In this document: piece by piece, positions 7,062 through 23,040 of the stretch
How the letters are laid out: the number at the start of each line of letters is the position of its first letter
Numbering within the stretch: position 1 is the stretch's first letter
Assembly (NCBI GenBank): GCA_027592325.1
Contig: JAQCKO010000003.1
Coordinates: 941 to 64,940 of the forward strand
Reading direction: 5' to 3'
Origin: a bacterium
GTDB lineage: Bacteria > Patescibacteriota > Patescibacteriia > UBA9934
DNA length: 64,000 bases
Made by a program: the position numbers and the translations under genes
The notes under the pieces: model-generated
Database searches by the model: none
Told to the model about the DNA's origin: nothing
Seen by the model: only the letters and a program-made list of their open reading frames with translations

Positions 7062-7136
7062 TCCGGGGTAGCTCAGTGGCAGAGCAGTTGGCTGTTAACC
7101 AATTGGTCGTGGGTTCGAATCCCACCCCCGGAGCCA
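7062..7136 (+). tRNA. tRNA-Asn (anticodon GTT)
   Basis: Hand-folded cloverleaf. Acceptor stem TCCGGGG/CCCCGGA, D arm GCTC-AGTGGCA-GAGC and anticodon loop CTGTTAA. T arm GTGGG-TTCGAAT-CCCAC, discriminator G and encoded CCA. Confidence 0.9.
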
Positions 7137-7145
7137 TCAAAGAAT

Positions 7146-7170
7146 CTCAGTTTTACTGAGGTTTTTTGTT
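7146..7170 (+). terminator. intrinsic terminator after tRNA-Asn
   Basis: Hairpin CTCAG-TTTTA-CTGAG followed by TTTTTTGTTT. Confidence 0.7.
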
Positions 7171-7215
7171 TGACCCAAGTGGGATTTCAGAACCCTAGTG
7201 TGATAACATGGCTCC
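7169..7215 (+). promoter_or_regulatory. conserved junction block P1 (TTTGACCCAAGTGGGAYKTCRGAACC...TGATAA), candidate promoter/leader
   Basis: Near-identical 40-45 nt blocks at 7169-7215, 13069-13110, 14152-14193, 21636-21677 and 22420-22447. Each lies between a junction terminator and the next cassette gene and contains the -35-like TTGACC. Confidence 0.4.
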
Positions 7216-7217
7216 AT

Positions 7218-7928
7218 ATGTTTTTAGAAGAAATGAAAACAACAGATTTTGAGGAAGGCAAAAAGTACATTTTTGTCATTCCAACGGGATCTACGGAACA
7301 ACATGGACCGTTCCTACCGCTTGGCACGGATTCTTACATTCAGGATGCAATTATCAATGGGGCCGAGAAACAGCTGACTGAGTTTATCTTTCTTCCAACG
7401 ATGCGGATTACTTGCTCAGAGGAACATGAAGGTTTTGCGGGGTCTGTTTGGATTTCACTCGATACTATGGAGCGTGTAATGAACGATATCTGTAAGTCGC
7501 TAGAGCCTTACGCTAAGAAGTTCATTTTCACTACGGCTCACGGTGGAAATATTGAGGTATTAAAGCGATTTGTTGAAAAGCATAAAAATGATTTTCCTAA
7601 TATCGAACTTCATTACGTAGACCCTGATAACGAAGAGATCGAGGAGAAGACGGTTGAATTGATTGGCGGACCAGTGGAAGATCATGCTGGTAACACGGAA
7701 ATCTCTATTATGCTTGGAATTCGTAACGACCTAACAATGATCCCAACTAAAGATTACCCGAAAAAGATTCTTGATAATGCTTTCAAAACAAATCGCTTGA
7801 AAGATTTCTCAGAAGACGGGATTGCCGATAACCATCCAGATTGGGTAATAGATGAAAGCCACGGAGAAAAGATACTGGACTGGATTGTTGAAGATTTTGT
7901 CGACTCATTGAAGAAGATTGTAAGCTAG
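7218..7928 (+). CDS. creatininase-family amidohydrolase
   Basis: IPTGSTEQHGPFLPLGTD motif. Start trimmed to the first ATG (7218) downstream of the tRNA, because the raw ORF 7047-7928 overlaps the tRNA. Confidence 0.7.
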   Translation: MFLEEMKTTDFEEGKKYIFVIPTGSTEQHGPFLPLGTDSYIQDAIINGAEKQLTEFIFLPTMRITCSEEHEGFAGSVWISLDTMERVMNDICKSLEPYAKKFIFTTAHGGNIEVLKRFVEKHKNDFPNIELHYVDPDNEEIEEKTVELIGGPVEDHAGNTEISIMLGIRNDLTMIPTKDYPKKILDNAFKTNRLKDFSEDGIADNHPDWVIDESHGEKILDWIVEDFVDSLKKIVS

Positions 7929-8668
7929 ATAAATTGATCCATCGCCATCAGGGACTCCAAGTTTGCCGTTCTGAATCCGTCCAGTATTCGGAGCCAATAA
8001 AAATTCACCGTCTTGTGCGGTGGATTTTTATTGGCTCTGGAGGGGGTAGGACAGTCCTGAGGACTGTCCGTGGGATGAGAACGGCCGGAGGCATATGTCG
8101 TCAGCAGACGACATGCCGAGGCCTGGTCCTGAGTGCGGTTTTCTGCAGAAAACCGACACGACGGCGAATCCCACCCCCGGAGCCAGGCTAGACGATCAGC
8201 ATCAAAGCTGATCGTTTTGCTTTTCTGAGGTATGTAATCAGATAGATTTAGTACCAAATTAAAAGGACTTCTTAATTCTAACAGTAATTTGCGATCCTTT
8301 AATTCTGGGTTCTGAACGAGGAAATTAATGAATTGGCGTTTTTCGTGTAATTCAGCACCTTCGAATATTTCTCGAGAACGACGAGCCACGGAAAGTACCG
8401 TGGCTACTGTCGTTTTGTAGTCATGATCTGCTTGAGTATGTTCTCCAAGCTCTATATTTAGACGCTGAAGACGATCTGTAAGCTCTTGCAGTTTTGTGTC
8501 GTAATCCTCCTTAGTAATCCGCACATTGAACTGGACACAACTTCGAAGGATTGGGATGGGTGTGTAGAAACGATTCTCAAACTGCTCGACGATGAGAGAA
8601 ACTGAACCATCAACAGCTTCAGCTCTGGCTACTTCACTGTTCTGAATGCGTCCAGTATCGGGAACCAA
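7925..8668 (-). CDS. hypothetical protein, probably a truncated or decaying gene
   Basis: Only ORF between R0 and R2. The N-terminal 150 codons (8230-8668) look protein-like. The C-terminal 95 codons read through the terminator, R0, the structured segment and R1 and are Pro/Ser/Arg-rich (likely non-coding read-through). A 25-codon homologous remnant (HEESQFINALVQTP) sits at 14954-15039. Confidence 0.3.
   Translation of the reverse strand: MVPDTGRIQNSEVARAEAVDGSVSLIVEQFENRFYTPIPILRSCVQFNVRITKEDYDTKLQELTDRLQRLNIELGEHTQADHDYKTTVATVLSVARRSREIFEGAELHEKRQFINFLVQNPELKDRKLLLELRSPFNLVLNLSDYIPQKSKTISFDADRLAWLRGWDSPSCRFSAENRTQDQASACRLLTTYASGRSHPTDSPQDCPTPSRANKNPPHKTVNFYWLRILDGFRTANLESLMAMDQFI
7968..7996 (+). 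repeat. junction repeat R1 (GTTCTGAATCCGTCCAGTATTCGGAGCCA), tRNA 3'-end-like
   Basis: 29-nt core ending in CGGAGCCA. Its last 6 nt begin a 47-nt near-perfect inverted repeat (7991-8037). Confidence 0.75.
7991..8037 (+). repeat. long hairpin GAGCCAATAAAAATTCACCG-TCTTGTG-CGGTGGATTTTTATTGGCTC (class B junction hairpin)
   Basis: 20-nt arms with one mismatch. The same hairpin core recurs at 9849-9885 after R3. Confidence 0.7.
8038..8164 (+). other. GC-rich highly structured segment with three perfect hairpins (candidate ncRNA or recombination-site arm)
   Basis: Hairpins GGACAGTCC-TGA-GGACTGTCC, ATGTCGTC-AGCA-GACGACAT with extended flanking pairing, and CGGTTTTCTG/CAGAAAACCG. GC content is well above the flanks, with an exact tRNA 3'-end copy at its 3' edge. 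Confidence 0.4.
8165..8185 (+). repeat. R0: exact 21-nt direct repeat of tRNA-Asn 3' end (CGAATCCCACCCCCGGAGCCA = 7116-7136)
   Basis: Perfect identity to the tRNA 3' end. Candidate att core delimiting a 1.07-kb unit. Confidence 0.85.
8192..8226 (+). terminator. intrinsic terminator (ACGATCAGC-ATCAAA-GCTGATCGT plus T-run)
   Basis: 9-bp perfect stem followed by TTTGCTTTTCT. A similar GACGATCAG hairpin follows R7 at 14846-14880. Confidence 0.65.
8639..8667 (+). repeat. junction repeat R2 (degenerate, ends GGGAACCA)
   Basis: GTTCTGAATGCGTCCAGTATCGGGAACCA followed by a degenerate class B hairpin (GCGGCGGATTTTT). Confidence 0.55.
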
Positions 8669-8724
8669 TAATCCTTCGCTAATTTCAGCGGCGGATTTTT
8701 GATACCCAAATAAAATTCAGAACC

Positions 8725-9819
8725 GTGGTAAAATCTTCGGGTGTGAAATTTGAACATAGAAGAACAGTCGAATATGTAGAATCGGCTAAAGTCAGTTTAG
8801 AAGATTTTGATGTTGGAGATACTCTAGAGGCATTGGCGGGTATTGCGTTAAAAGACGAAACTCAAAAGCGCGTATTGGAACTTCAAGAAAAAAAAAGGGG
8901 GGTAATGGAGTGGTTGAAAAATCAACGTACCAAAATTAACAATGGTGAAAAGATAGAATTGCATGAACAGCATTCGAAAATTTTCCATGTTGTTTATCAA
9001 GATGGCGCTTTCATCGGGAGTGACGGTGAACAAAGCTTTGATTTAACATTAGGCGAGTTGTTAACAGATGCATCTTGGGGCATTGATTATGATCTTGACA
9101 TGGATTCGGTGCCTTCAGATATAGCAAAGCAATATATTTTATCTAGAGCTAAAAGGATGCTGCGTGAATTGCTAAACAGGCAACTGGTTTTAATCGAATT
9201 GGATGTAAATAACGACGATCAGCAGAAGAAGTCCTTTTCAGCTGTTGGTGAAAGACAGAAGCAAGGAAGAGAGCTGATAGCTCAAGATCAGGGTTTTATT
9301 GCTGAAGAGATGATATTAAATTTAATAAAAAAACTAGTCATAGATCACGATTTGCCAGTTGAAATAGAGGAAGTAGATGTTTATGACGATGTGGTTAATA
9401 AAGTTGATTATGTTATCAGGAGAACTGATCGTAAAAGAGGGGTTGAAATTGATGTGATTGATGAAGAAAGTCCTGAACGGATAGGTGTTCAGTTCACACT
9501 CATGTTTCGAAAGGCCTCTATGGTTGGTAAGCGTAAAACAGTCTTACAGGCATTGAGAAGAGGTATGGTAGGTGAACTGCAAGATTTACAGGATATTGCT
9601 GTAGTAAATGTTCACCCAGCATATATAAAGCGATCAGTTAACACATGGAAAAAAACTAGAAAACCTGGCGGGCCGGACAATTGTTTAGAGGTAGCTGCTA
9701 AGGTAGATTTAGTTCAAAAAATGCTAAAAGATTTATTTTCAGAAAATGAAATAGATGAAATTGTAAGTGAAGTTTACGGCGTTGATAGAAATAAAACTAA
9801 AATTCGCAGAACCTATTAA
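8725..9819 (+). CDS. hypothetical protein
   Basis: 364-aa ORF filling cassette R2-R3, with no recognisable motifs. Confidence 0.5.
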   Translation: MVKSSGVKFEHRRTVEYVESAKVSLEDFDVGDTLEALAGIALKDETQKRVLELQEKKRGVMEWLKNQRTKINNGEKIELHEQHSKIFHVVYQDGAFIGSDGEQSFDLTLGELLTDASWGIDYDLDMDSVPSDIAKQYILSRAKRMLRELLNRQLVLIELDVNNDDQQKKSFSAVGERQKQGRELIAQDQGFIAEEMILNLIKKLVIDHDLPVEIEEVDVYDDVVNKVDYVIRRTDRKRGVEIDVIDEESPERIGVQFTLMFRKASMVGKRKTVLQALRRGMVGELQDLQDIAVVNVHPAYIKRSVNTWKKTRKPGGPDNCLEVAAKVDLVQKMLKDLFSENEIDEIVSEVYGVDRNKTKIRRTY

Positions 9820-9848
9820 GTTCTAACATCCTCCACGATGCGGAGCCA
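9820..9848 (+). repeat. junction repeat R3 (GTTCTAACATCCTCCACGATGCGGAGCCA)
   Basis: Followed by the class B hairpin AAAAATTCACCG-TCTTGTG-CGGTGGATTTTT (9849-9885). Confidence 0.75.
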
Positions 9849-9936
9849 ATAAAAATTCACCGTCTTGTGCGGTGGATTTTTGTATTTCCAATCACCCTCC
9901 CAGATTTCTTGCCGAAATGATACACTTGGTCACAAT

Positions 9937-10761
9937 ATGAACGTGAAAGAATTTTATAAACATTCATCAAAGGAAATCGTCGATCTATTTCGTGATTTTA
10001 TTGAAAAAGATTGTTTCAGCCAATATCCTGAATTAAAGGATAAGTTGAGCTTCGTGCTCACGGGATCCGTACCCTCGAATCACTATGATCAATATAGTGA
10101 TATTGATTGTAATTTGTTATTCGAGAACGAATCTGATCTGGCCATGATTAAGGAAGCTGTAAAAAAGTATAAGATGAGCTTACGGGAACAAAAACTTCCG
10201 ATTCAGCTTCACTCCCCAATGACGTTTAGCGAATTGGAAAACTCCTTGACCAATTGGAATCATGATTCGGCTTTACGTGAACACGCGGCAGCACTCGTCA
10301 TTTTTGACCCACACGATCGCTATAAAACAATTCAATCGCGGATCAAATGGTATCCAAAAGAAGTATTACAAGAAAAGATTCAATGGCTTTTTGCCGAATC
10401 TATTTTTGCGTTTGAAGATCGTCTTGTTGTGGCCGTGGAACGTGAAAATGATCTCTATGTACGCTCGTTGAGTTTACAGATAGTGAAACTGCTAGCCAAC
10501 GCACTCATCATGATAAATGACCGCTATCCTGTATTTGAAAAGCATATATATTTTAATCTCCGTGATCTCGGTGAAAATGAGTTTTGTGCTCAAATCGACT
10601 TGCTCCTGAGCATGACCGAGACAGATGAAATCCAAAGGTCTATTACTGATATCATCGATACCGTGGAACAACGCCTTATTAAAGCTGGTTTTATGGAAAA
10701 ACAGCCCAAAGAGCATTGGATACAGCTTCGTCCTAAGTTTCAGATTGAAGGATGCGCCTAG
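9937..10761 (+). CDS. polymerase-beta-superfamily nucleotidyltransferase domain protein
   Basis: LTGS-x10-DID matches the hG[GS]-x9-13-DhD minimal nucleotidyltransferase signature. Helical C-terminal domain. Start trimmed to ATG 9937. Confidence 0.6.
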   Translation: MNVKEFYKHSSKEIVDLFRDFIEKDCFSQYPELKDKLSFVLTGSVPSNHYDQYSDIDCNLLFENESDLAMIKEAVKKYKMSLREQKLPIQLHSPMTFSELENSLTNWNHDSALREHAAALVIFDPHDRYKTIQSRIKWYPKEVLQEKIQWLFAESIFAFEDRLVVAVERENDLYVRSLSLQIVKLLANALIMINDRYPVFEKHIYFNLRDLGENEFCAQIDLLLSMTETDEIQRSITDIIDTVEQRLIKAGFMEKQPKEHWIQLRPKFQIEGCA

Positions 10762-10841
10762 AAGGATTCAATGAATTTTGCAAATGTTCCATGCTGACTT
10801 AGACCTGGTATACTCATTCAAACCTCACAAAGAGTTTTTTT

Positions 10842-11861
10842 ATGGCAGAAAGACCAACGTTTAATCCTGAAATCAGAGAACTGCATGAAGGTGTAAAGAA
10901 GTTTGAAATCGTCGATGTAGAAGGTAATCGGTTAGGAGTTTGTGAATCTGTATTTGAAAAACACCCAACCAATGAACAGTACAAAGTTTTGCAGAGATGT
11001 GAACTTACTGCTGCAAACGGTGAAAAAATTGACTTGCTTCAGATGCCTGATGGTGAAAGAAGCAATGTCGAGGTTTTATTTGTCGACAATCCACGGATTG
11101 AAGAACAATATCTGATGCGTGTTGGTACCGTAGTTTTAGTTAATCGAGACATGACCTCCATTGATGACATTGCCGTATTATTGCATGAGATGGGACATGA
11201 CGAGCAGGCTCGCTCTTCTGATGGTTTCTCAGAAGTTTACAATGCGATGCACATTAACAACGACCTGCCATATGATGATTTTTCACGAGCGTTTCGTGAT
11301 TTAAGCGACAGTTTTCGAGTTCTTTATGCTTATATTGAAATGGTAGATCGTGATGTACCAATGCACGTTAAGCTTGATCAGGATTTAGAAGAAGAAATTA
11401 GAAATGCCGTAGCGGAATTTAAGCGTTTACATTTAGACGATGCAAAAGAATCTGATCGCATTAAAAAAGAAGTTGGTAGGGGTTATCTAGAGTGGTCCGA
11501 GGATGAGGAGCGTTATAACAAAGATCACCTAGCTGGGATTCGGGCCTTATCGTCCTCTACAGAGAGTGTTCTAAAAAAACATCCAAAGCTTCGTGGCATT
11601 TACACCGATATGGTTTTATGGCAGGAACGGGATGCTTCTGACCGAGCACGCGCTCGACTGAACGTTTTTGTCGAACAGGGAATGAATCTTGTTGACGCAA
11701 AGTTTCCTCTCACCGATCGAGAAATAGCTATGGCTGAAAATAACTTAACGCACAAATCGAGAAGGATGCAGGAGGCAACGAGGGCCTATCTTGAAGATCG
11801 AGACAAGACGATCGATGAGCGGCTTAAATTCTCGTATCAAACGTATGAATGTACGCATTGA
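10842..11861 (+). CDS. hypothetical protein with HExxH (zincin-like) motif, possible metallopeptidase
   Basis: LLHEMGHDEQ motif. Shares a cassette with the nucleotidyltransferase, with no junction repeat between them. Confidence 0.45.
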   Translation: MAERPTFNPEIRELHEGVKKFEIVDVEGNRLGVCESVFEKHPTNEQYKVLQRCELTAANGEKIDLLQMPDGERSNVEVLFVDNPRIEEQYLMRVGTVVLVNRDMTSIDDIAVLLHEMGHDEQARSSDGFSEVYNAMHINNDLPYDDFSRAFRDLSDSFRVLYAYIEMVDRDVPMHVKLDQDLEEEIRNAVAEFKRLHLDDAKESDRIKKEVGRGYLEWSEDEERYNKDHLAGIRALSSSTESVLKKHPKLRGIYTDMVLWQERDASDRARARLNVFVEQGMNLVDAKFPLTDREIAMAENNLTHKSRRMQEATRAYLEDRDKTIDERLKFSYQTYECTH

Positions 11862-11884
11862 TTGGTGAATTCTGTTCAACGGCA

Positions 11885-11913
11885 GTTCTAACATCCTCCA
11901 CGATGCGGAGCCA
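11885..11913 (+). repeat. junction repeat R4 (identical core to R3/R5)
   Basis: GTTCTAACATCCTCCACGATGCGGAGCCA followed by a class A terminator (ACCGG-TTTCA-CTGGT plus T-run). Confidence 0.75.
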
Positions 11914-12014
11914 ACAAAAACATACCGGTTTCACTGGTGTTTTTTTGTTTGTTTCAAAGCTATCTAGAGTGGGAATTGAACTTTCTTGATATAATGAATC
12001 TAGAAGATTGAATT

Positions 12015-13001
12015 ATGCGCAAATCATTCGATATTCCTCAACGCAGGTCAGATGTTGAGAAGCCCCCTGCACCAGAACTTAGGTTCTTCTTCTCTGCTCA
12101 CGGACAAATTCAAGACTATGAAGGTATCCAAGAAGCTTTACAGGATGCTGATGTTTTTGTTGTAGAAGCACACGGATGGAACGAAGATGATCTAAGGTAT
12201 CTTCAAGAAATTTCAGATGGAACCAAGGTTCCGAGGCACATAGAGGAAAAACGTGAACCACAAGATGTTATTGAATATGAGGAAGACTTGCTTTATAAAA
12301 CTGGTAAACGGATTGAAATCGTTGACGTACCCGAAGGCCACGAATTAGACAAAGAAGACGATGGAACAGCTGGGATATCTGAGGCTGCGCGCACTTTTAT
12401 TGCTCGTGGAGATCTAGAATCTGCACTTGCAGCGCTAGATACGGCAGTAAAGATGAATGCGGAGTACATTAGAAAAAAAGATGAGTATATTGAAGGTCAA
12501 TTGGATGCTCTTTTGAAGAAGCTTTCAATTGAGGATCCAAATGCGAAAGTGTTGGTTCAGATAGGATCGACACATACAGGCATTTCGCACGACTTAAGAA
12601 GAGAAGGAATAGCAAGTCGAGTACGTAATAGTGTAAAATTCGATTTTAAAGATGAGCTTGTTCGTTCTTATCGATTCAAAAAATCTCCTGAGAGGGATCT
12701 ATTAATAAAAGTCTTGATTGAAGAGGTGTTAAGAACAAGTTTTCAAGATCAACTCAGAAAGGTGCCATATATTCAGCGAGTCGATTTTTTCAGAAAGCAT
12801 TTAGCAAATATAACTGAGGAACAGATTCAAAATTTGGGCTATAAGACAGAGTCTAAGTTCTTTGATCGAGTGATTATGCGCTATGAGAATTACACACCAG
12901 AGCTTAAGAGACAGATTTTGACTGAATCATGGCAAGTTGTCTTCGGGGCGGCTATCGATGAAAGTATTGCAAAGTTAGTAAATCAGCAGCATGATCGATG
13001 A
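12015..13001 (+). CDS. hypothetical protein
   Basis: 328-aa ORF in cassette R4-R5, with no recognisable motifs. Confidence 0.5.
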   Translation: MRKSFDIPQRRSDVEKPPAPELRFFFSAHGQIQDYEGIQEALQDADVFVVEAHGWNEDDLRYLQEISDGTKVPRHIEEKREPQDVIEYEEDLLYKTGKRIEIVDVPEGHELDKEDDGTAGISEAARTFIARGDLESALAALDTAVKMNAEYIRKKDEYIEGQLDALLKKLSIEDPNAKVLVQIGSTHTGISHDLRREGIASRVRNSVKFDFKDELVRSYRFKKSPERDLLIKVLIEEVLRTSFQDQLRKVPYIQRVDFFRKHLANITEEQIQNLGYKTESKFFDRVIMRYENYTPELKRQILTESWQVVFGAAIDESIAKLVNQQHDR

Positions 13002-13006
13002 TCTTG

Positions 13007-13035
13007 GTTCTAACATCCTCCACGATGCGGAGCCA
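13007..13035 (+). repeat. junction repeat R5
   Basis: Identical 29-mer to R3/R4. Followed by a class A terminator (CATCGG-GTTTA-CTGGTG plus T8) and conserved block P2 (13069-13110). Confidence 0.8.
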
Positions 13036-13118
13036 GCAAAAGACATCGGGTTTACTGGTGTTTTTTTTGTTTGACCCAAATGGGACTTCGGAACAAGAAT
13101 TTGATAAACTGGTTTTAT

Positions 13119-14009
13119 ATGAAAAATGCATTCAACCTGCAAATCCCTGAGATGAAAGACATTCTGGCAGATCCTGAGATAGAGAAGTCCGTATCGGACA
13201 TGTTGGGAACCGTTTTGAGTTACCTCGGAATTCCAGACGACGCAACTGGGCGTGTAGTTGAGGAAACGTTCGACAAAACGAAAAAGGCGGTGTCAATCAC
13301 CGAATACGAGAAGAATGTACACGCTCTGCTTGATCGCGAGGGCGTAGTAGCCGCATTTCCACATAAGCTACTTGAGCGTACAAAGATCATGGTAGAAGAG
13401 CTTAGACCGTATCTTCTTGAGGGTAGCGTGCTAGATTTGGGATGTGGTGACGGCAAGACAGGGGAACTGCTAGCCGATACGCATGAAGTACAACTAGCGG
13501 ACGTGTTTGAACATCTGCACATCAAGGAAACGGGCTTGGACTTTACGTTTTTCAAGCAGGGCGAGCTTGTACCTATTGAAGATAACTCGTTCGACAATAC
13601 GTTAAGTATCTACGTATATCATCACAGCGACGATCCAATACAATCAATGCTCGAGGCGAAGCGGGTCACTCGGTCTGGTGGGAGAATCATTGTAATGGAA
13701 TCGGTTTATGGAGTGGACGAGTTGCTTCTCAGCGATGAACAGAAAGAGAAAGCTAAACCATTCTTACGCTTATCTGCGGAACAGCAGCGTTTATGTAACA
13801 TTTTTTTTGACCATTTCTGGAATCGGGTATTGATGTATAGCGATGACCCAAGCATGAAGATCAACGTTCCATTCAATTTTAATACTCCCGATGGTTGGAA
13901 GAAGATCTTTGAGGCTAATGGTCTTACACAGGAGAAAATGATTCACATGGGTATGGATCAACCAACCGTTCCTGAGTACCACACGATGCATATTTTGCGA
14001 GTAAACTAA
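13119..14009 (+). CDS. class I SAM-dependent methyltransferase
   Basis: VLDLGCGDGKTG motif I. Start trimmed to ATG 13119, after the conserved block. Confidence 0.7.
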   Translation: MKNAFNLQIPEMKDILADPEIEKSVSDMLGTVLSYLGIPDDATGRVVEETFDKTKKAVSITEYEKNVHALLDREGVVAAFPHKLLERTKIMVEELRPYLLEGSVLDLGCGDGKTGELLADTHEVQLADVFEHLHIKETGLDFTFFKQGELVPIEDNSFDNTLSIYVYHHSDDPIQSMLEAKRVTRSGGRIIVMESVYGVDELLLSDEQKEKAKPFLRLSAEQQRLCNIFFDHFWNRVLMYSDDPSMKINVPFNFNTPDGWKKIFEANGLTQEKMIHMGMDQPTVPEYHTMHILRVN

Positions 14010-14092
14010 TTTTTGAATGTGTTTACAAAAAGTTGAATGTATTCATGATAGAAACTGATCTATTGTAGGCCTTTAATGATGCCCAATGCACG

Positions 14093-14121
14093 GTTCTGAA
14101 CCCGTTCAGTATTCGGAGCCA
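14093..14121 (+). repeat. junction repeat R6 (GTTCTGAACCCGTTCAGTATTCGGAGCCA)
   Basis: Followed by the terminator TCAAAAAATCTCAGTTTTACTGAGGTTTTTTG, which is near-identical to the one after the tRNA, then block P3 (14152-14193). Confidence 0.8.
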
Positions 14122-14203
14122 TCAAAAAATCTCAGTTTTACTGAGGTTTTTTGTTTGATCCAAATGGGACTTCAGTACAAGAATTTGATAAACTAATATT
14201 TGT

Positions 14204-14776
14204 ATGAACGTTGCTGAACAAATTCAAAAGATGGTTACCGATGGGGTTTTGATCATTGCCATAGATGGTCATGGTGGTTCTGGCAAATCTTCCCTCGGAA
14301 GGATGTTGGGAGAAAAACTTCATGCCACAGTTTTCCATACCGATGATTTTGCTTCATGGGATAACCCAACCGAGTGGTACGAGGATATGATCGAGCAAGT
14401 CTTTATACCTATTGAAAATGGCGTAAAGACATTGAGTTATGAATTGTCAGTATGGGAAAAAGGTAAATCTCGTGGAAAAATTGAGAACCAGCCAGTAACG
14501 AACATTATCATCGTGGAAGGTGTCGGTGCGAGCAGAGCGGAGTTTCGCAAGTATCTCGACTTTTCCATCCTTGTCGATGTTCCTGAAAGCATTTGTATTG
14601 AAAGAGGGGTAAGTAGAGATCTTGCAGACATGCCCCACAAATCGAAAACGGAAATACGGAAACTTTGGCTTGATTGGATGGAAGAGGAGCGAAAGTATTT
14701 TTCAAAGCATCAACCCAAGGAAAATGCTGACGTTATTCTTGATGGAACAAAGTCGTTTGCTGAACAGATCGACTGA
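14204..14776 (+). CDS. P-loop nucleoside/nucleotide kinase-like protein (uridine-kinase/CPT-like fold)
   Basis: Walker A AIDGHGGSGKSS and Walker B-like IIIVEGVGA. 190 aa. Confidence 0.55.
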   Translation: MNVAEQIQKMVTDGVLIIAIDGHGGSGKSSLGRMLGEKLHATVFHTDDFASWDNPTEWYEDMIEQVFIPIENGVKTLSYELSVWEKGKSRGKIENQPVTNIIIVEGVGASRAEFRKYLDFSILVDVPESICIERGVSRDLADMPHKSKTEIRKLWLDWMEEERKYFSKHQPKENADVILDGTKSFAEQID

Positions 14777-14816
14777 CAAACTGAGCCATCATAGGCTTAA
14801 CTCCTGCCACTTGACC

Positions 14817-14845
14817 GTTCTGAACCCGTCCACGATGCGGAGCCA
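14817..14845 (+). repeat. junction repeat R7 (GTTCTGAACCCGTCCACGATGCGGAGCCA)
   Basis: Preceded by a 40-nt extension (14777-14816) that is 100% identical to 20425-20464. Followed by the terminator ACGATCAGTA-GAAA-TACTGGTCGT plus T-run. Confidence 0.8.
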
Positions 14846-15359
14846 AGAAGGACGATCAGTAGAAATACTGGTCGTTTTTCTTTGTGCTACTGAATAGTGT
14901 GCGAATTCTAGTACTGTATTCATTGGTTCTTTAGCTCAATAATGAATTCCCGTTCTTTCAATTAGGGAGTCTGAACAAGGGCATTGATGAACTGGCTTTC
15001 TTCATGCAAATCTATTGGCGAGCAGAAGGTAATATTGAGTCATGACATACTGAATACAAATGGATTGAGTTTGGCGATATAAAAAAATATCTTGGCACAA
15101 TCAAAACAATGAGATCGTGGCGATAAAATCAAAAATTCAAGACCTGACCCCTTTACGGTAGCATTGGCGAGTTGCTGCAACTCGGAGCACCTTCCACGGG
15201 TGGTCCTTACGTTTTAAAGGCGGAAATCGTGACAAAGTGAATGCACTTTTTTCTGGCAGGTCTTCTATGGTGGCTGTTTATGGGGGAGGTGCGTTTTGCA
15301 AGAGCTTGCCGCGTAAGGAGAAGAAGTGATGAGAGTTATTATTTGCTATACTTCTTCAT

Positions 15360-18293
15360 ATGGTCAGAAGATCAGAATATTATCGTATCAGTGAATTTGA
15401 GAGAGGTAGTGGTCATGAGCGTCCTCGTACTTCTATGGAGGGGGTTGAGGATTATGAGGCGCGAGAGCAGTCTTTTTTGTACGCTGCTCAAGATGAGAAG
15501 CGTGATTTGAAGGATTTGCTGAATGAGGTGCGTCCGTCGACGAGGTATTGGAGTGGCATGAAATCTCGAGTGCTAGAAAGTTTGCGGCGTATTGTTGGCG
15601 TTAAGGACTATGCGTCGATTTCTGATTCGCTTTCTAGTGAGGCTGCGCTAGACGCTTCTGGCGTTGAAGCGGAGGTTGCAGCCATGCGCGAAGATTTGGA
15701 AGTCCGAGAGCTTGAAGCTATTCTTGCGGAGTCACGTGGATCATCGCTTTTGGCGCGTCTCCGAGAGTTTTCATTTTCCTTTTTAGCAAAGCGTCAGCGA
15801 ATTTCGTTCGATGATAAGGGCGGCGAAGTGTCTAGCAAGCCAACCGCAGCGATCGAGAAGATTCAAAAAGTAGAGGAAAAGCGAGAAGAAATTTCCCTTA
15901 CCGATTGGCTTGAGGCGAAGATTCGTCGCGCTCGAGCGGAACGTATGTCCGATGGAGCTTCGGATGATGAGGTGCGGTTGGTTGATGATGAAATTTCGGA
16001 ATGGTTTCGAGCGAAGTTGGATCATTTTTTTGTGAGTGGTGGTGATCCTACGGATGAACAGGTATTGATTGATTGGCTTGAATCTGACGGTGAAGAAGTT
16101 GTTCCATCGGTTGAGACTACGGTTGTTCCGCGAGATAGCGATATATCTTCATCTGAAAAGCCGGGTGATGATGAAGAAGCGATTGAGAAAATGCTTGCGG
16201 AGATTCGCGGGCGTGAGGGGTTTTTGAATTCACTTTCTAACCATCGACGATATGTTCATGCTTTTCAATTAGCTTCGTTTTTAATGGCATCTGACGGAGG
16301 GAGTGCAGAAGCGTACAGGGATCTGGGGTCGGATATTGAAAAAGAAATGCAAGCAGGATTGGGAGAGAAGGTTGATTTAGAGGGGGTGCTTGAGGAGGAT
16401 CTTGATCATTTGGTGATGTACCGCTCGAATGAGCTTTTGAAAGCGTTTATTGAGGCGCCTGATCATCCTTTGGCTGCGAAGGGATTGCAAATGATGGCGG
16501 CGGAAAATCCATGCTATTTTGCGGGCGGATTATCTGCATTTTTTGAGCAGAGTTATTATAAAGATTTGCTTGAAGAAGTGATTTTTGCTGATCCTCGGTA
16601 TACGCTTGGCGTATTAGCTGAAGCAAAAGGGGATCAGAAGAACAGTGCTCTTGCCGATGAGGTTACCACTTTACTAAAGGATTCAACTCAGCTATCGGCG
16701 GAAACAATGCTAGTGCTGTCTTCTGAGGATATGCCAGCTTTTGAACGTGATAGGCTAGCTGATATTTTCCCTTTTTTGGTACGTGACAATGTGGGCGGTG
16801 AATTGTTTGACCAGATTCTGGGGGATGATCATGCGTATGTGGATGGACTCGTGTATGTGGCTTCGAATGATTTTGGGATTATGTCTGAGCGGGCCGACGA
16901 TACATTGAATGTAATTATGGACGAGCGCGTGGCTAGAATGAATAACTTGCAGGAGTCAGGGGACCCATATGCATCGATTAGGGGGGCGAGTGTTGATGAG
17001 CTGTATGCAACCATGGCCTATGGTAACTATGCAGCTCCGTGGATGGTCGATACGATGTTTAAAGAGCTTTCAGCGAAGATGAGGGAGGATGGCCTGGGGT
17101 CGAAGCAATTGGTTGATCGGCTGGGCGGACTTCAATTTCAGCAGTTTGCGGAAAATCTTTCAGAGGTAGGGCTATTTGATGAATTTTTGGTATTGGCCGT
17201 CGCTGAGCATCGCGGGAAGGCGCTCATTGATCGTTTTATTTCTGGGATTACTTCTGATAATGCTCGTGAATCGCTCGGACATATTACTCAGATGATTCAA
17301 CTCACCTCGCATACGGGTGTTCAATCGTATTTGAAGGAAGCTATCGAGCGCGAGTACGTGACAGCTCGTGATTCTGGCGACAAAGATCAACAGCGTGCTT
17401 ATGGAGTGCTTTCTTCTTTATTTGGCGAAGAAGCGACATGGCTTGATTCTAATGAATATATGGTTTCACCGCAGGAGAAGCTGGCCATTTCAGAGCTCTT
17501 CGATGAGAGTGGTCGCAGTGTTTCAGAGAATCGTTTTTATCAAGATATAGATAGTGATGGGCATTGGTCGTTTCTTAGCTGGGTGCAGCAACAGAAGCAG
17601 CTTGGGTTTGATGTGGAAGATCATGGAACCTTCATTCGTATGGTTAGGAAGCAAGAGAATCGTGTGGTGATTTTGTACGGAAATAAGCCTCAAGCTTCTC
17701 CACACGGTGCTACGAAACTCAAGGCCATGGATTATGCTCAATTTCAGCAGTTTAAGAAGAGTGCTGGACTAGGTGATGGGATCGCGGACGTACCGAGAGA
17801 TCGGTGGGATGACGGTATGAATGGAGTTGCTGATATGCGTGAACATATGCAAGCGAATGGCTTAGATGGGCAGATTTTGGTGCATCGTGGTCATTCGTAT
17901 TGGAATCAGTATACACTTGAAGATGTTTATGATTCGACCAGGCTTGTTATTGATGGGTCCTGCGGGGGAGCGGGGACTGTTCAGAATGCAATTCGTGCGA
18001 ATCCTGATGTGCAGATGCTTTATACTCGAGGGATTGGTTCAACGGGTATTAATGATACATTGGTTCGAAATATTAATGCGTTATTGATTGCAGGTAAAGA
18101 TATCGTTTGGAGTGATTTGCGAAGTGAAACTGGCGGAGAGTTCGGCGCCCTCTATAGCGATGCAGAGACTAGAGAAAAGGCTGAGGGATATTATGATAAG
18201 TATGTTTTTCCAGATCAGAAACAAGGTCTTTCTACGCGTGTTGTGCAACGATTTTTAGCCGGCGATACAGATCCCATTATAACAGCAGGTTAA
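15360..18293 (+). CDS. large acidic hypothetical protein (977 aa) with C-terminal His...Cys pattern whose order matches clan-CD (caspase-like) peptidases
   Basis: Long Asp/Glu-rich helical N-terminal region. C-terminal QILVHRGHSYW then RLVIDGSCGGAG, each after a hydrophobic strand, with His before Cys. Start uncertain (15360 or a downstream Met). Confidence 0.5.
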   Translation: MVRRSEYYRISEFERGSGHERPRTSMEGVEDYEAREQSFLYAAQDEKRDLKDLLNEVRPSTRYWSGMKSRVLESLRRIVGVKDYASISDSLSSEAALDASGVEAEVAAMREDLEVRELEAILAESRGSSLLARLREFSFSFLAKRQRISFDDKGGEVSSKPTAAIEKIQKVEEKREEISLTDWLEAKIRRARAERMSDGASDDEVRLVDDEISEWFRAKLDHFFVSGGDPTDEQVLIDWLESDGEEVVPSVETTVVPRDSDISSSEKPGDDEEAIEKMLAEIRGREGFLNSLSNHRRYVHAFQLASFLMASDGGSAEAYRDLGSDIEKEMQAGLGEKVDLEGVLEEDLDHLVMYRSNELLKAFIEAPDHPLAAKGLQMMAAENPCYFAGGLSAFFEQSYYKDLLEEVIFADPRYTLGVLAEAKGDQKNSALADEVTTLLKDSTQLSAETMLVLSSEDMPAFERDRLADIFPFLVRDNVGGELFDQILGDDHAYVDGLVYVASNDFGIMSERADDTLNVIMDERVARMNNLQESGDPYASIRGASVDELYATMAYGNYAAPWMVDTMFKELSAKMREDGLGSKQLVDRLGGLQFQQFAENLSEVGLFDEFLVLAVAEHRGKALIDRFISGITSDNARESLGHITQMIQLTSHTGVQSYLKEAIEREYVTARDSGDKDQQRAYGVLSSLFGEEATWLDSNEYMVSPQEKLAISELFDESGRSVSENRFYQDIDSDGHWSFLSWVQQQKQLGFDVEDHGTFIRMVRKQENRVVILYGNKPQASPHGATKLKAMDYAQFQQFKKSAGLGDGIADVPRDRWDDGMNGVADMREHMQANGLDGQILVHRGHSYWNQYTLEDVYDSTRLVIDGSCGGAGTVQNAIRANPDVQMLYTRGIGSTGINDTLVRNINALLIAGKDIVWSDLRSETGGEFGALYSDAETREKAEGYYDKYVFPDQKQGLSTRVVQRFLAGDTDPIITAG

Positions 18294-18294
18294 T

Positions 18295-18549
18295 ATGAAT
18301 AAACGATTATTTGCACTTATTCATTCATCTGATTTAGCGAAGGATGAACAGTATCGATTTCTTGGTATGCTTCGAGCTTCTTCTGAGTTAGATCAGAAAA
18401 AACTGGCGGTACTATTTTTGGAAGACCCTGCTTCTTTGCGAGCTGTTTTCGAAAATTTTGACGCGAAGCGTTCGGCGAAGGAGGACGGGAGTGTGGAGCT
18501 TTTTGAGCAGGCTATTGATAAAGAAAAGGAGTTTTTGCAAAATCTCTAA
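18295..18549 (+). CDS. small hypothetical protein (84 aa), translationally coupled to the upstream large protein
   Basis: Starts 1 nt after the stop of the 977-aa ORF. Confidence 0.45.
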   Translation: MNKRLFALIHSSDLAKDEQYRFLGMLRASSELDQKKLAVLFLEDPASLRAVFENFDAKRSAKEDGSVELFEQAIDKEKEFLQNL

Positions 18550-18618
18550 AAACGGCTCCATTAACAAGACCCCATTCGCCGTTGCGTTTGGGGTCTTTCG
18601 CCGTGAACTGAGCGTGTC

Positions 18619-19368
18619 TCAATTCGTTTGGCAGTCGTAGGCGCCGTCAGCGTTGACAGTGCAGTTCATTGGGATGATGAGGACCTCGTCGCCGACCTCT
18701 GCGACGTCGAAGAGGTAGTTCATCCAGGCACCATCCACGCCGACGCAGCCTTGGGTGTATTGCCCGGGCGTCCAGGAGTGGATGAGGATGTCTCCCCCCA
18801 TCGCGGTTTGTTGCGACGGTACCCTGCCGCTCTCGATGTGTTTCAGCATGCGTTTCATGGTGGGCTCGTCGATGACACCCTGCGTAAATGCACGCTTGAT
18901 GTCGCGACGGCGGGGGTAGTCGATGCGGAGGCCCTGCTCGAAACTCGTCTTGTACGGGTAGGCGCGATCGGAGTCGCGCGTCGCCTTCACGTGGACGACG
19001 TACTTGCCCTCGGGCGTTGACGACCAGTCGCGGCGGGTCTTTGGCCCTTCAGGCGTCTTCCCCATGTTCACGGGGATGCAGACAGTTTCGCCGCTCTGTA
19101 CCACCAGATAGCCTTCGTAATAAAGGGCGATGTGGTGGGTGTCCTTGAAGACCACCAGGGTGCGCTTCCCGGTTGTTCGACCGTCTGGTCGGTACTCGAT
19201 GGGAAGCTTGCCAAGGTCGGCGGGGCAGGGCGACTCCTTCTCGTAGGAGTAAGGGTTGTCGCTCCACGGGTGGGGAGCGGTCGCGGATGTGGTTATGATG
19301 TCGGCTGGTTTCTGAGGAGCGCAAAATGTCAGGTTTGAGGTCAGGGCGAGAATGAATGCTCGGAGCAT
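18619..19368 (-). CDS. secreted L,D-transpeptidase (YkuD-like) domain protein, compositionally foreign
   Basis: Signal peptide, then IHSWTPGQYTQGCVGV matching the LD-transpeptidase His/Cys catalytic motif. Markedly higher GC than all neighbours, and a high-GC gene typically carries long shadow ORFs on other frames (18628-19020, 19049-19324, 19132-19338). Confidence 0.6.
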   Translation of the reverse strand: MLRAFILALTSNLTFCAPQKPADIITTSATAPHPWSDNPYSYEKESPCPADLGKLPIEYRPDGRTTGKRTLVVFKDTHHIALYYEGYLVVQSGETVCIPVNMGKTPEGPKTRRDWSSTPEGKYVVHVKATRDSDRAYPYKTSFEQGLRIDYPRRRDIKRAFTQGVIDEPTMKRMLKHIESGRVPSQQTAMGGDILIHSWTPGQYTQGCVGVDGAWMNYLFDVAEVGDEVLIIPMNCTVNADGAYDCQTN

Positions 19369-19930
19369 GGCATCTCCAGCATGAAGTTAAAGAATTGACT
19401 GACCACTAACCTTAGCTTAAATGTGTTCATTTTGTCAAGGGGGTAATTGTTTTTACTCCTATCAAGCTTGTCAACAAGATTTTCCTGTTTCTCGCTTATT
19501 TTGATATAATGTGCAGCCGATCTCGCTCAGACGCTTTGCGCTCCTGATACGGAATCTGCCTATTGTGCAACTACGGATACGGCGGTCTATTATGTGACGC
19601 CAGATTGCCAGCGGTATTTTTTGAACGAGGATATTTTCATTAGTTATTATTCTTCTTGGGATGAAGTGAAGGAGAATGAGGAACTTTCCTTTATGCCTTC
19701 GGGGCCAAATTATCCCCTTTAATTTGGAACGCCTGTAAAGACGGTGAACGATCCCAAGGTCTGCATATTACTCCTTCCACTTTTGCCACTACCAGTATTT
19801 TTTTGTATTTGTTTCTTGCTTTGAAGAAAAATTACAAAATCAACTGGGTATTACTGTGGCTATTGTAGATATGGATGAGTATTGGCTAGACCGAGAATCC
19901 GATGCCTTCAAAGATGGCCGCGATCAGGAA

Positions 19931-19958
19931 CAGCTCGAATCCATGTGATGCGGAGCCA
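19931..19958 (+). repeat. junction repeat R8 (short variant ...GCTCGAATCCATGTGATGCGGAGCCA)
   Basis: Ends CGGAGCCA. Followed by the class C hairpin GGGACTCGAAC-TATCCAAT-GTTCGAG plus T-run (19961-19998). Confidence 0.65.
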
Positions 19959-20024
19959 ATGGGACTCGAACTATCCAATGTTCGAGTTTTGTTTTATGCT
20001 AGAGAAAAATTCGGTTCTAATTAT

Positions 20025-20432
20025 ATGAATCATATAGCAACAGGGATATTGATAGACAAGGATGGAAAACTCTTGGCCTATCTACGAGATGACAAACCGA
20101 GCATTCCGTTTCCTAATCATTGGGATCTTTTTGGTGGATACGTAGAAGATGGGGAAACGAATGAAGAAGCTCTTGTGCGTGAAGTGCAGGAAGAATTGGG
20201 ATGTAACCTCAAAGATTACAGCTTCTACAAAGATTATGAGTGTTTGAAGGGCGATGACCATGTAAATGTGAAGCATGTTTTTGTTGCGCACATTGATGCA
20301 AAAGCGGATGACCTGACTTTATATGAGGGTCAAGAGCTGCGTGGTATTCCACTTGAAGAAATACATGAGTACAAATGGGCAAACATTTTGGGAGTGATTT
20401 TGGATGACTTCGTAAAAGATCAAGCAAACTGA
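20025..20432 (+). CDS. NUDIX hydrolase
   Basis: Nudix box GGYVEDGETNEEALVREVQEELG. Start trimmed to ATG 20025, downstream of the junction hairpin. Confidence 0.75.
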   Translation: MNHIATGILIDKDGKLLAYLRDDKPSIPFPNHWDLFGGYVEDGETNEEALVREVQEELGCNLKDYSFYKDYECLKGDDHVNVKHVFVAHIDAKADDLTLYEGQELRGIPLEEIHEYKWANILGVILDDFVKDQAN

Positions 20433-20464
20433 GCCATCATAGGCTTAACTCCTGCCACTTGACC

Positions 20465-20493
20465 GTTCTGAACCCGTTCAGTATTCGAAGACA
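20465..20493 (+). repeat. junction repeat R9 (degenerate end CGAAGACA)
   Basis: GTTCTGAACCCGTTCAGTATTCGAAGACA, preceded by a 40-nt extension identical to 14777-14816. Followed by the hairpin CCTCAGCA-GAAA-TGCTGGGG plus T-run and a GGGGTTCGAACTG motif. Confidence 0.7.
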
Positions 20494-20598
20494 ACATCGC
20501 CTCAGCAGAAATGCTGGGGGTTTGTTATTGTTTTTGGACTTCCCGAAATGGGGTTCGAACTGATATAGTCCGAGAAGTAATTTTTTAACTCTCTAGTT

Positions 20599-20784
20599 AT
20601 GAAGACAATGAAATGTGATATGTGTGAAGCGACCGCAGAAGGCGAAACATTTGAGGCGTGGATGCAGGCTCTCATGCCTCATTACATGCAAGTTCATGCA
20701 GACGTAATGAATGATCCTAAGAATGGGAAAGAGGAGCAGATGAAATGGATGGTTGAAAATAAGGCAAGGTTTGAGGCTGCCTAA
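20599..20784 (+). CDS. small hypothetical protein (61 aa, CxxC near N-terminus)
   Basis: MKCDMCEATAEG. Sole ORF in cassette R9-R10. Confidence 0.4.
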   Translation: MKTMKCDMCEATAEGETFEAWMQALMPHYMQVHADVMNDPKNGKEEQMKWMVENKARFEAA

Positions 20785-20890
20785 AATCACGCGGCAACTA
20801 TCGATTGTTATGCCGAAAAATAATCGCTAAACCAAATCTGACACTGTGAAGGTCGGGGTGCTAGCATGCCCTTTGTACTTCTGAATAGCA

Positions 20891-20918
20891 GTTTTACATC
20901 CTCTACGACGCGGAGCCA
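20891..20918 (+). repeat. junction repeat R10 (GTTTTACATCCTCTACGACGCGGAGCCA)
   Basis: Ends CGGAGCCA. Followed by the same CTCAGCAGAAATGCTGGG hairpin and CCCGAAATGGGGTTCGAACTG motif as R9. Confidence 0.7.
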
Positions 20919-21575: not shown

Positions 21576-21604
21576 GTTCGGTAAAAAGGTAATCTAGGGA
21601 GCCA
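21576..21604 (+). repeat. junction repeat R11 (degenerate: GTTCGGTAAAAAGGTAATCTAGGGAGCCA)
   Basis: 29 nt retaining GTTCGG...GGAGCCA. Followed by a class A terminator (CATATG-TTTTA-CAGGTG plus T7) and block P4 (21636-21677). Confidence 0.55.
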
Positions 21605-22360: not shown

Positions 22361-22389
22361 GTTCTGAATCCGTCCAGTATGCGGAGCCA
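22361..22389 (+). repeat. junction repeat R12 (GTTCTGAATCCGTCCAGTATGCGGAGCCA)
   Basis: Followed by a class A terminator (CATCTG-TTTTA-CAGGTG plus T-run) and block P5 (22420-22447). Confidence 0.8.
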
Positions 22390-23011: not shown

Positions 23012-23040
23012 GTTCGGAACCCGTCCACCAATCGGAGCCA
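23012..23040 (+). repeat. junction repeat R13 (GTTCGGAACCCGTCCACCAATCGGAGCCA), last copy
   Basis: Followed by the class C hairpin GGGACTCGAAC-TGTTAAAG-GTTCGAG plus T-run (23041-23078). No further copies downstream. Confidence 0.75.

Follow-up and report, generated by a model that had tools for sequence, protein, structure and literature searches.

What are the repeats that separate the genes of a compact array beside a tRNA-Asn gene in a patescibacterial genome, and how do unrelated genes come to end in the same one? The window analyzed here (the whole stretch of 64 kb) contains, from the tRNA-Asn gene at 7062–7136 to approximately 23100, small co-oriented genes with a repeat between each of them. 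The cargo includes a creatininase, a nucleotidyltransferase, two methyltransferases, a P-loop kinase (open reading frame (ORF) 14204–14776), a Nudix hydrolase, RidA, a SET-domain protein and several unknowns. A preliminary description of this DNA regarded the repeats as attC-like cassette ends of the integron type. Our analysis suggests that they are probably attachment sites of a family of large serine recombinases (LSRs) whose target in Patescibacteria is the 3′ end of tRNA-Asn, and that the array grew by accretion of cassettes bounded at the crossover core. The alignments behind this proposal establish the homology of the arms to the LSR tail and to predicted attP arms, the attL/attR anatomy of related loci, and a deletion common to two of the arms.

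The repeat consists of a 29-nt core ending in CGGAGCCA. Core matches amount to 6 + 3 in the window versus 0 in shuffled sequences, and CGGAGCCA was found 12 times, with 1.4 occurrences expected. All core copies are located downstream of tRNA-Asn and have a single orientation throughout. The crossover core is also carried in the tRNA's own 3′ end (...CCCCCGGAGCCA, junction J0), and the locus has the layout of a tandem tRNA island, in which the intact tRNA-Asn is followed by 14 direct junctions as far as 23040 and by two LSR remnants. The junctions J0–J14 are numbered by the last base of CCA (Table 1); R0 of the preliminary description corresponds to J2, and R1–R13 to J1 and J3–J14. The only true tRNA-Asn copy among the repeats is 8165–8185, the others having only CGGAGCCA in common with the tRNA. 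In addition, the cores are mosaic: their left part is of one of two types (GTTCTGAAYCCGT or GTTCTAACATCCT), and so is their right part (YCAGTATTCGGAGCCA or CCACGATGCGGAGCCA). The core designated variant 2 is also present as six arrayed copies in the related locus L076.

The minus strand of the cores encodes the motif WL(R)I(L/V)(D/E)(G/D)(F/V)RT at nine junctions, compared with zero to three matches to the loose motif in shuffled sequences. In a protein database search, the minus-strand ORF 8230–8668 matched short 'hypothetical' proteins of Patescibacteria, longer relatives of which possess Recombinase and zinc-ribbon domains and, in one case, a Resolvase domain as well; full-length LSR relatives contain PF00239, PF07508 and PF13408. 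In the alignment, this LSR family was seen to have WLRxxDxxRT as its conserved C-terminal tail; many database fragments terminate instead in ...WLGGWDSNPRP, which corresponds to the tRNA T-arm read in antisense. The array contains two LSR remnants. An ORF at 14789–14923 joins the P arm of J8 to the second of them, reading MNTVLEFAHYSVAQRKTTSISTDRPSWLRIVDGFRTVKWQELSL before its stop codon, and since this remnant is in frame with the arm, J8 can be considered attP-like.

The family was further examined by a scan of one genome per species, using a profile built from a narrower LSR alignment, which detected 78 loci, nearly all of them in Patescibacteria. At approximately 45 of the 78, the 3′ end of a full-length LSR gene (~500–550 aa) overlaps the 3′ end of tRNA-Asn in antiparallel orientation; a few loci use tRNA-Gln or tRNA-His. 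The other end of the element lies 7–10 kb upstream of the LSR gene and is composed of a 70–110-nt arm, within which the core is GTTCTGAACTTGTCCACTAGRGGGAGCCA, and then a terminator. On the LSR strand, this distal arm encodes WLPLVDKFRTANWTxIKSDLQFSGILGLFPxLSLQN followed by a stop codon. This peptide is conserved in a dozen genomes, and its entropy by codon position (0.70/0.55/1.08) shows the third position to be the most variable. Because stop codons occur just upstream of the W, the distal orphan tail belongs to no gene there. For the L054-type LSR, the tRNA-encoded tail would end in ...WLRGWGSNPRPAD and the P-arm tail in ...WLRILNGFRTVNWQELEPVFCRFV. In the subfamily to which the window belongs, the tail has approximately 24 residues (WLRILNGFRTVRWSDIKPMMAQFTA in L094 and WLRILNGFRTVKWESLKPAMAQFV in L096, each followed by a stop codon). 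A scan of IMG/VR with the LSR profile found no viral relative.

Based on these features, each junction can be divided into three parts. The first is a P arm, comprising the 29-nt core and a 20–80-nt extension, the opposite strand of which encodes the LSR C-terminal tail (WLRxxDxxRT...); the second is the crossover core GGAGC(CA), common with the tRNA; and the third is the right arm of the next unit, an A-tract/stem/T-tract hairpin resembling a terminator, behind which promoter-like sequence often follows. Where an element is complete, its right arm (class D of the hairpins described below) would be the end of the LSR gene itself, which would place attP inside the recombinase gene. Integration at the tRNA would remove the last 24–36 codons and move the tail segment to the far end of the element, a few tRNA-encoded codons replacing the tail, and excision as a circle would rejoin the arm and complete the LSR gene. 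Recombination between attP and attB by LSRs involves a 2-bp staggered cut at the central dinucleotide, and the attL/attR pairs available in seven loci confine the exchange to GGAGC. All four combinations of arms around CGGAGCCA were observed in the window: tRNA with class A (J0), tRNA-type with LSR (J2), P with class A (J7), and P with LSR (J8).

The tRNA-type arm of J2 belongs to a tRNA-Asn-derived, highly structured element of 155 nt at 8028–8185 (plus strand), which starts with a tRNA-Asn-like sequence (TCTGGAGGGGGTAGG) and ends in the exact 21-nt 3′ end of tRNA-Asn (8165–8185). Its interior contains three hairpins (fold of -86.6 kcal/mol, z = -7.3), and neither ARAGORN nor Rfam made a call. 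Counterparts of 150–190 nt were observed in at least five other genomes (L005, L010, L012, L016 and L072), at the right flank of the attR terminator; in these, the 5′/3′ closing helix co-varies between genomes, the end is ...CCGGAGCCA-like, and LSR-remnant-like sequence comes next. This element could be either an old attL with a decayed tRNA or an undescribed tRNA-like RNA. Rfam searches (gathering threshold over the whole window and E<=5 over 6900–23400) reported tRNA-Asn alone, leaving the cores, the hairpins and the 8028–8185 element without a family, and the same was found for the cores, the hairpins and the 8028–8185-like element on six related loci.

How two unrelated genes come to share an identical 3′ end can be understood from the coding content of the arms. 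The two stretches, one in the P arm of J8 and the other in that of J10, are indeed 100% identical over 53 nt, as reported in the preliminary description, and the identity extends not one base to either side. Local duplication including upstream coding sequence is not indicated, as the left flanks (kinase versus Nudix) are unrelated, and likewise the right flanks (class D versus class C hairpin). The stretch was also said to supply the stop codons of both genes, which is true of the Nudix gene, whose TGA corresponds to bases 6–8 of the 53-mer, but not of the kinase gene, whose TGA (14774–14776) directly precedes it. Reverse-complemented, the 53-mer encodes (D)GFRTVKWQELSL and then a stop codon, and one extra A in the run GTTAAAGCC would give ...VKWQELKPMMAQF. 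This base is absent from both window copies (J8 and J10) and present in L094, L096, L086 and J3; the shared deletion indicates that both copies descend from a single arm that was already frameshifted. The 53-mer spans the tail-coding segment from inside the core, where its right edge lies, to the natural tail end; its left edge is the stop region of the tail, abutting the cargo gene, where homology between any two arms ends.

At the second copy, the minus-strand stop codon of the tail overlaps the last Nudix codons, and the conserved tail codons (A/V)-Q (xxT CAG), reverse-complemented, give the Nudix TGA, so that every ORF running into the arm in this frame will encounter a stop. The stop of the Nudix gene is thus incidental, a by-product of tail-to-tail packing. 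Termination of otherwise unrelated ORFs was previously interpreted as characteristic of attC; only one of the two genes uses this stop. The 53-mer owes its conservation to being an antisense 3′-terminal segment of recombinase coding sequence, now frameshifted, and not to the termination of cargo ORFs. The identity may reflect recent copying of a frameshifted tail arm to a second cassette by gene conversion or homologous exchange between arms. The mosaic cores (J8 an a–b hybrid, J13 a hybrid within the right part) also argue for such exchange rather than for selection on the 53-mer. A crossover midway through the 29-nt core was also considered, prompted by the partial dyad TCYGAAT..ATTCGGA and by the abrupt right-hand limit of the 53-mer. 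It was rejected, since tRNA sequence is retained in J0 and J2 as far as GGAGCCA and the exchange falls in GGAGC according to the attL/attR pairs; the right edge more probably marks where a homologous-exchange tract ended.

The sequences to the right of the core were compared in the same manner. By folding, a hairpin starts 0–8 nt past CCA at all 15 junctions, the tRNA included, with a dG (folding free energy) of -13 to -36 kcal/mol and a common build of A-run, stem-loop and T-run. A pattern scan detected 26 terminator-like sites in comparison with 12.9 ± 3.1 in shuffled sequences, and matched one or both strands at 11 junctions. Families were defined by pairwise identity over the first 45 nt past CCA, for which random 45-mers gave 47.7 ± 4.4% with a maximum of 61%. 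The four hairpin classes proposed earlier were accurately described, but the number of families is five, since class C comprises C1 and C2, whose likeness to each other is no better than that of random sequence. In addition, R6 (J7, 14121), which had been left unclassified, and the tRNA's own hairpin cluster with class A. This class follows the junctions at 7136, 11913, 13035, 14121, 21604 and 22389 (J0, J5, J6, J7, J12 and J13; 66–93% identity), class B those at 7996 and 9848 (J1 and J4) together with a degenerate member at 8667 (J3), class C1 those at 19958 and 23040 (J9 and J14; 80%), class C2 those at 20493 and 20918 (J10 and J11; 87%), and class D those at 8185 and 14845 (J2 and J8; 66%).

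In classes A, B, C1 and C2, the hairpin is where the following unit begins. The class A arm of the tRNA is an A-tract/stem/T-tract hairpin followed by a 5′ module, TTGACCCAAGTGGGATTTCAGAACC..TGATAAC, with promoter-like and T-arm-like features. Class A arms continue as TTGACCCAAGTGGGAYTTCAGAACC..TGATAAACT, with the cargo start codon 6–10 nt on, and include promoter-like matches (TTGACC-N17/18-xAGAAT); across the window, promoter-like matches are not enriched (31 versus 30.3 expected). Such 5′ modules are common to cassettes with unrelated cargo (66–93% identity), and right arms of the same kind, beginning with a terminator or with a -35 box a few bases past the core, occur in other genomes; a C1 arm is also present past the attR of the Uhrbacteria element L054. 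Class D, on the other hand, is LSR coding sequence: 14846–14923 on the minus strand reads MNTVLEFAHYSVAQRKTTSISTDRPS, in frame into the J8 core, and the class D hairpins (8190–8217 and 14852–14876) fall within the coding sequence of the two remnants. The same hairpin is found in the intact 530-aa LSR of L054, directly past the CCA of the tRNA, where it occupies a 14-residue insertion that is missing from many members of the family, and in a distant copy in L094 the stem is preserved despite changes on both sides. Class D may supply the tRNA with a terminator after integration has removed the native one. In general, the junction hairpins look like bidirectional intrinsic terminators of the next cassette or, in class D, of the recombinase gene, and their most likely role is termination and insulation, for the tRNA as well as for each cargo gene.

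A T-arm-like motif, GGGAYTTCAGAAC or GGGGTTCGAAC, was observed after the class A and C2 terminators and inside the hairpin in C1 (7170–7206, 13070–13110, 14155–14195, 21638–21680, 22422–22450 and 20536–20560; also in L043 and L066). It is the inverted image of the left part of the core, GTTCTGAAYCC. At J0, the motif GTGGGATTTCAGAACCC..GATAACA aligns with the T-arm and acceptor of the tRNA, GTGGGTTCGAATCCC..GGAGCCA. Possible identities are an older att site that has decayed, a right half-site of the recombinase or a promoter spacer.

The LSR-less cassettes thus described have the layout terminator–promoter–ORF–P arm. Most likely, the window represents an accretion array at tRNA-Asn made of two decayed LSR elements together with ten or more single-gene cassettes that lack an LSR, the boundaries of each falling exactly at the crossover core. 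These cassettes would most likely have been inserted, or captured via alternative attR sites, by an LSR in cis or in trans, and two routes could be envisaged for the LSR-less units, either mobilization in trans or excision of an LSR element through an alternative downstream P arm. LSR-free arrays of P cores are also present elsewhere (L072, L076 with six cores, L077 and L095), with a spacing of ~0.8–2.6 kb, mostly 1–2 kb, and right arms in which a promoter or terminator comes first, immediately at the core. Single cassettes may have moved, and may still move, as units. With regard to cargo, a homolog of the kinase (54% identity) in L098 has a P core 5 nt past its stop codon, a homolog of the SET-domain protein (60% identity) adjoins a P core in L086, and the L095 array contains kinase-like, Nudix-like and methyltransferase-like genes. 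Such homologs beside P cores in other organisms would fit a shared cassette pool, although they do not prove it. Only one of the four kinase homologs examined lies beside a P core (that of L098); those of L099 and L100 are in ordinary chromosomal contexts, and that of L101 has nothing after its stop codon, the nearest tail-motif match being ~4 kb off. Exact-protein look-up of the kinase and Nudix sequences retrieved the same locus in sister samples alone and no new context.

Several other explanations of the array have to be weighed against accretion of cassettes. The likeliest of them assumes that each unit was once a full LSR element, later reduced by random deletion to a gene and a P arm, so that LSR-less cassettes never moved as units. 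The pair of LSR remnants in the window agrees with it, as do the several arms that have decayed and the lack of polymorphism between samples, and plain tandem accretion of whole elements does occur, as in the complete Wolfebacteria genome at L013, in which a full element lies beside an older truncated LSR that reads into the P arm of the newer one. However, 11 cassettes of the window and the arrays of L076 and L095 start with a terminator or -35 box 0–8 nt from the core and show no LSR trace, and their 5′ modules are shared between unrelated cargo genes. Random deletions are not expected to stop at the core every time. As at least ten units without an LSR trace start exactly there, site-specific insertion or capture is preferred over deletion, and we consider this fossil origin unlikely. 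A tRNA-derived intergenic element resembling repetitive extragenic palindromic sequences or miniature inverted-repeat transposable elements, consisting of a T-arm mimic and a terminator and spreading without a site-specific recombinase, might account for the resemblance of the core to the tRNA T-loop and acceptor end and for the terminator after every copy. It is nevertheless very improbable, given that the copies are found solely downstream of tRNA-Asn and in a single orientation, the J8 repeat is in frame with an LSR remnant, the same sequence forms the far boundary of LSR elements in other genomes, and the tail frame is conserved and open up to a conserved stop.

The integron reading, in which attC sites fold as single strands and are recombined by an integron tyrosine integrase, was right in spirit and wrong in kind. 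It would expect an array in which cassettes, mostly of one gene, point the same way, each ends 3′ in a site, and every junction has a hairpin, and its main observations stand, namely that arms of a recombination site lie at cassette 3′ ends with exact boundaries and that one arm can be attached to unrelated cargo. The attC frame itself fails on the homology of the site, at the DNA level and in translation, to LSR gene tails and to the ends of LSR elements. Moreover, the cores begin with GTTCTGAA or GTTCTAAC, so that the fourth base is C (GTTC) and not R as in the R′ box GTTRRRY, and the hairpins are perfect A/T-flanked stems past the core, without the bulged geometry of attC and its imperfect R″-L″/L′-R′ inverted repeats. 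Integron cassettes are mostly promoterless and are expressed from a common promoter, whereas the cassettes of the window may have promoter-like modules of their own. The ORFs scanned across the window contain no tyrosine recombinase or Phage_integrase domain, no IntI with attI and the cassette promoter Pc beside the first cassette, and no recombinase other than the two LSR remnants. The ORF at 5282–6466, which adjoins the tRNA at the start of the array and was first suspected to be an integrase, encodes an HtrA protease. Consequently, attC sites are an extremely improbable explanation and were rejected.

Some observations weigh against the proposal that the junctions are LSR attachment sites used by cassettes. 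LSRs normally need both half-sites, and the great diversity of right arms among cassettes without an LSR speaks against single cassettes functioning efficiently as attP. The 64-kb window contains two LSR remnants and no intact LSR. Neither a circular cassette nor an empty site was found, and sister contigs of two other samples have the same gene order. Several arms have decayed (a nonsense change in J3, frameshifts in J7, J8 and J10, and degenerate cores in J9–J12), and the array may now be a fossil that is no longer active. Furthermore, the codon-position bias of the tail extension is weak in the window's own subfamily (1.45/1.13/1.52), and the terminator role predicted for the hairpins is read from sequence pattern alone.

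With respect to known systems, the relatives of the window remnants share the Resolvase, Recombinase and Zn-ribbon architecture of phiC31/Bxb1/A118-type LSR elements, as well as a short common core without long attP–attB homology, and the P, P′, B and B′ arms can be read from attL/attR pairs. They differ in that attP would lie inside the 3′ end of the recombinase gene, a conserved tail of 24–36 aa is kept as an orphan coding segment, and the target is a tRNA 3′ end that the P arm mimics. We know of no described LSR with attP in the 3′ end of its own gene, and a literature search of incomplete coverage returned nothing relevant on serine recombinases of the candidate phyla radiation (CPR), Saccharibacteria or Patescibacteria at tRNA-Asn, or on serine integrase genes that contain attP. 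The analysis identified no recombination directionality factor for this LSR family.

Tandem accretion at a tRNA is shared with tycheposons, in which repeated integration at one tRNA pushes older elements inward and produces arrays with att repeats between elements, fragmented integrases and niche-function cargo (Hackl et al., bioRxiv 10.1101/2020.12.28.424599). Tycheposons are multi-kb elements with replication modules, 910 of 937 have tyrosine recombinases, and their repeats are true partial copies of the tRNA (bioRxiv 10.1101/2020.12.28.424599). In contrast, the window array involves an LSR as the recombinase, a repeat that is a tRNA-like recombinase tail, mostly ~1-kb single-gene units and a patescibacterial host, and ORF domain scans found no primase or helicase module in it. 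The cassettes also resemble cis-mobilizable elements (CIMEs). In the accretion–mobilisation model of ICESt1 and ICESt3 of Streptococcus thermophilus, CIMEs are recombinase-less units flanked by att sites, which are formed through the use of alternative att sites and moved by the recombinase of a neighbor; they depend on tyrosine integrases and are several kb in size. To our knowledge, neither arrays of more than ten single-gene units nor an arm encoding a recombinase tail have been described for CIMEs or ICESt1/ICESt3. Integron cassettes are similar in their compact co-oriented arrays, in a site that abuts or overlaps the cargo stop, and in a boundary inside the site, whereas the window system uses a serine recombinase instead of IntI, double-strand-type att arms instead of folded attC, and a tRNA 3′ end instead of attI, and its cassettes would bring their own terminator and promoter-like module. 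Integration into a tRNA gene that alters the frame of an element gene, so that integrated and excised states encode different proteins, is known from SSV1-type archaeal viruses, in which a tyrosine integrase gene is split in its body, and from the integration-dependent immunity of mycobacteriophage BPs, which has a tyrosine integrase and attP in the repressor gene, the truncated gene being the repressor. Here, it is the extreme C-terminus of a serine recombinase that would be swapped.

A broader interpretation is that Patescibacteria carry an integron-like cassette system that has tRNA-Asn as its anchor and a serine recombinase as its driving enzyme, in which the P arm acts as an exchangeable last 'exon' and the tail swap switches the LSR between two forms. 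We regard this extended proposal as doubtful. If it held, excision via any P arm would rebuild a full-length LSR with a tail of 24–36 aa and integration would remove it, which could provide built-in directionality or an activity switch without a separate directionality factor, and alternative P arms would capture or shed single-gene cassettes. Were the tail swap to control the recombinase, there would be a credible chance that the system is more than a variant of LSR integration. The layout with attP in the recombinase gene would be a new way of coupling the form of a recombinase to its integration state, the evidence being the conserved orphan tail, and might be of practical interest, as LSRs are used in genome engineering and ordinarily depend on a second protein for their directionality. 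Gene exchange in the ultra-small, host-dependent Patescibacteria is poorly understood, and the present findings point to a widespread family of serine-recombinase elements for which tRNA-Asn is a fixed hot spot that accumulates accessory genes in the form of compact, self-contained cassettes. Among the cargo of this array and of related loci are kinases, Nudix hydrolases, methyltransferases and restriction-modification systems.

Several observations concern the LSR family as a whole. Very many CPR-bin hypotheticals of 110–250 aa (P0005, P0007, P0012 and others) are 5′-truncated LSR C-termini that run into antisense tRNA, an origin that accounts for hundreds of short 'hypothetical' annotations. 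None of the 120 best matches to a 232-aa query exceeded 405 aa, and truncated LSR copies seem to be far commoner than intact ones. A complete LSR element at tRNA-Asn is present in L013 (Candidatus Wolfebacteria CP011209, 754931–776052), where it carries a type III restriction-modification system with a Res helicase, an N6/N4 methylase and a helix-turn-helix (HTH) protein. Restriction-modification-like genes also seem to be present in L096 and L088, and full LSR elements may mainly ferry defense genes.

Table 1. Coordinates of the tRNA anchor, junctions, arms and recombinase remnants in the window; the junction position is the last base of CCA.
Feature	Coordinates	Strand	Junction position	Remarks
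tRNA-Asn(GTT), array anchor (J0)	7062..7136	+	7136	ARAGORN; Rfam tRNA 73.9 bits
Class A right arm of tRNA	7137..7206	+		dG -19.6; 93% identical over 45 nt to arm at 14122; repeat family D3
J1 P arm, creatininase cassette	7927..7996	+	7996	minus strand codes intact tail WLRILDGFRTANLESLMAMDQFI, then stop
Class B palindromic hairpin, J1 right arm	7997..8040	+		dG -35.7; 81% identical to arm at 9849
J2 tRNA-type left arm, with class D arm	8028..8185	+	8185	attL-like; repeat D19, 100%
LSR remnant 1, 5′-truncated	8165..8518	-		residues 410-524 of 530-aa homolog; tblastn 69% identity, 1e-47
J3 degenerate P arm	8599..8667	+	8667	tail W changed to stop: WFPILDAFRTVK-stop-PELKLLMVQF
J4 P core, variant 2 GTTCTAACATCCTCCACGATGCGGAGCCA	9820..9848	+	9848	minus strand codes WLRIVEDVRT
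J5 core	11885..11913	+	11913	variant 2, identical to J4
J6 core	13007..13035	+	13035	variant 2, identical to J4
J7 P arm, then class A arm	14053..14121	+	14121	attR-like; arm 93% identical to tRNA's downstream arm
53-mer copy 1	14777..14829	+		antisense to LSR tail codons (D)GFRTVKWQELSL, then stop; 1-nt deletion; reaches natural tail end ...MMAQF
J8 29-nt core	14817..14845	+	14845	mosaic: left part type a, right part type b
LSR remnant 2, decayed	14837..15012	-		aligns to 530-aa LSR; in frame with J8 P arm
J9 core, degenerate left arm	19930..19958	+	19958	more tRNA-like; then C1 hairpin GGGACTCGAAC..GTTCGAGT
53-mer copy 2	20425..20477	+		same 1-nt deletion; Nudix stop TGA 20430-20432 inside
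J10 degenerate core ..TTCGAAGACA	20465..20493	+	20493	then C2 hairpin
J11 core	20890..20918	+	20918	variant-2-like; then C2 hairpin
J12 degenerate core	21577..21604	+	21604	GGAGCCA alone retained; then class A hairpin and 5′ module
J13 core	22361..22389	+	22389	right part hybrid of types a and b; then class A hairpin
J14, last core of array	23012..23040	+	23040	then C1 hairpin; copper-resistance genes beyond

Within the array, the decayed LSR element between J8 and J9 has as its main cargo a 977-aa ORF (15360–18293, plus strand) without a Pfam match, which is followed by an 84-aa ORF and then by a YkuD L,D-transpeptidase gene on the opposite strand. Past J14, the array ends at a pair of metal-resistance genes (23231–27035, plus strand), encoding a DsbD-like/HMA/cupredoxin fusion protein and a copper-type P-type ATPase, which may belong either to the island or to the core genome. 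Further downstream, 36482–37090 (plus strand) encodes a bacteriorhodopsin-like protein (PF01036, E = 2.3e-16) and adjoins a rhodanese-domain gene; the genome looks Patescibacteria-type. The overlapping ORFs 27139–27906 and 27768–28394 (plus strand) each match HI0933-like flavoprotein domains, and the pair looks like one gene split by a frameshift, due to either a pseudogene or an assembly error.

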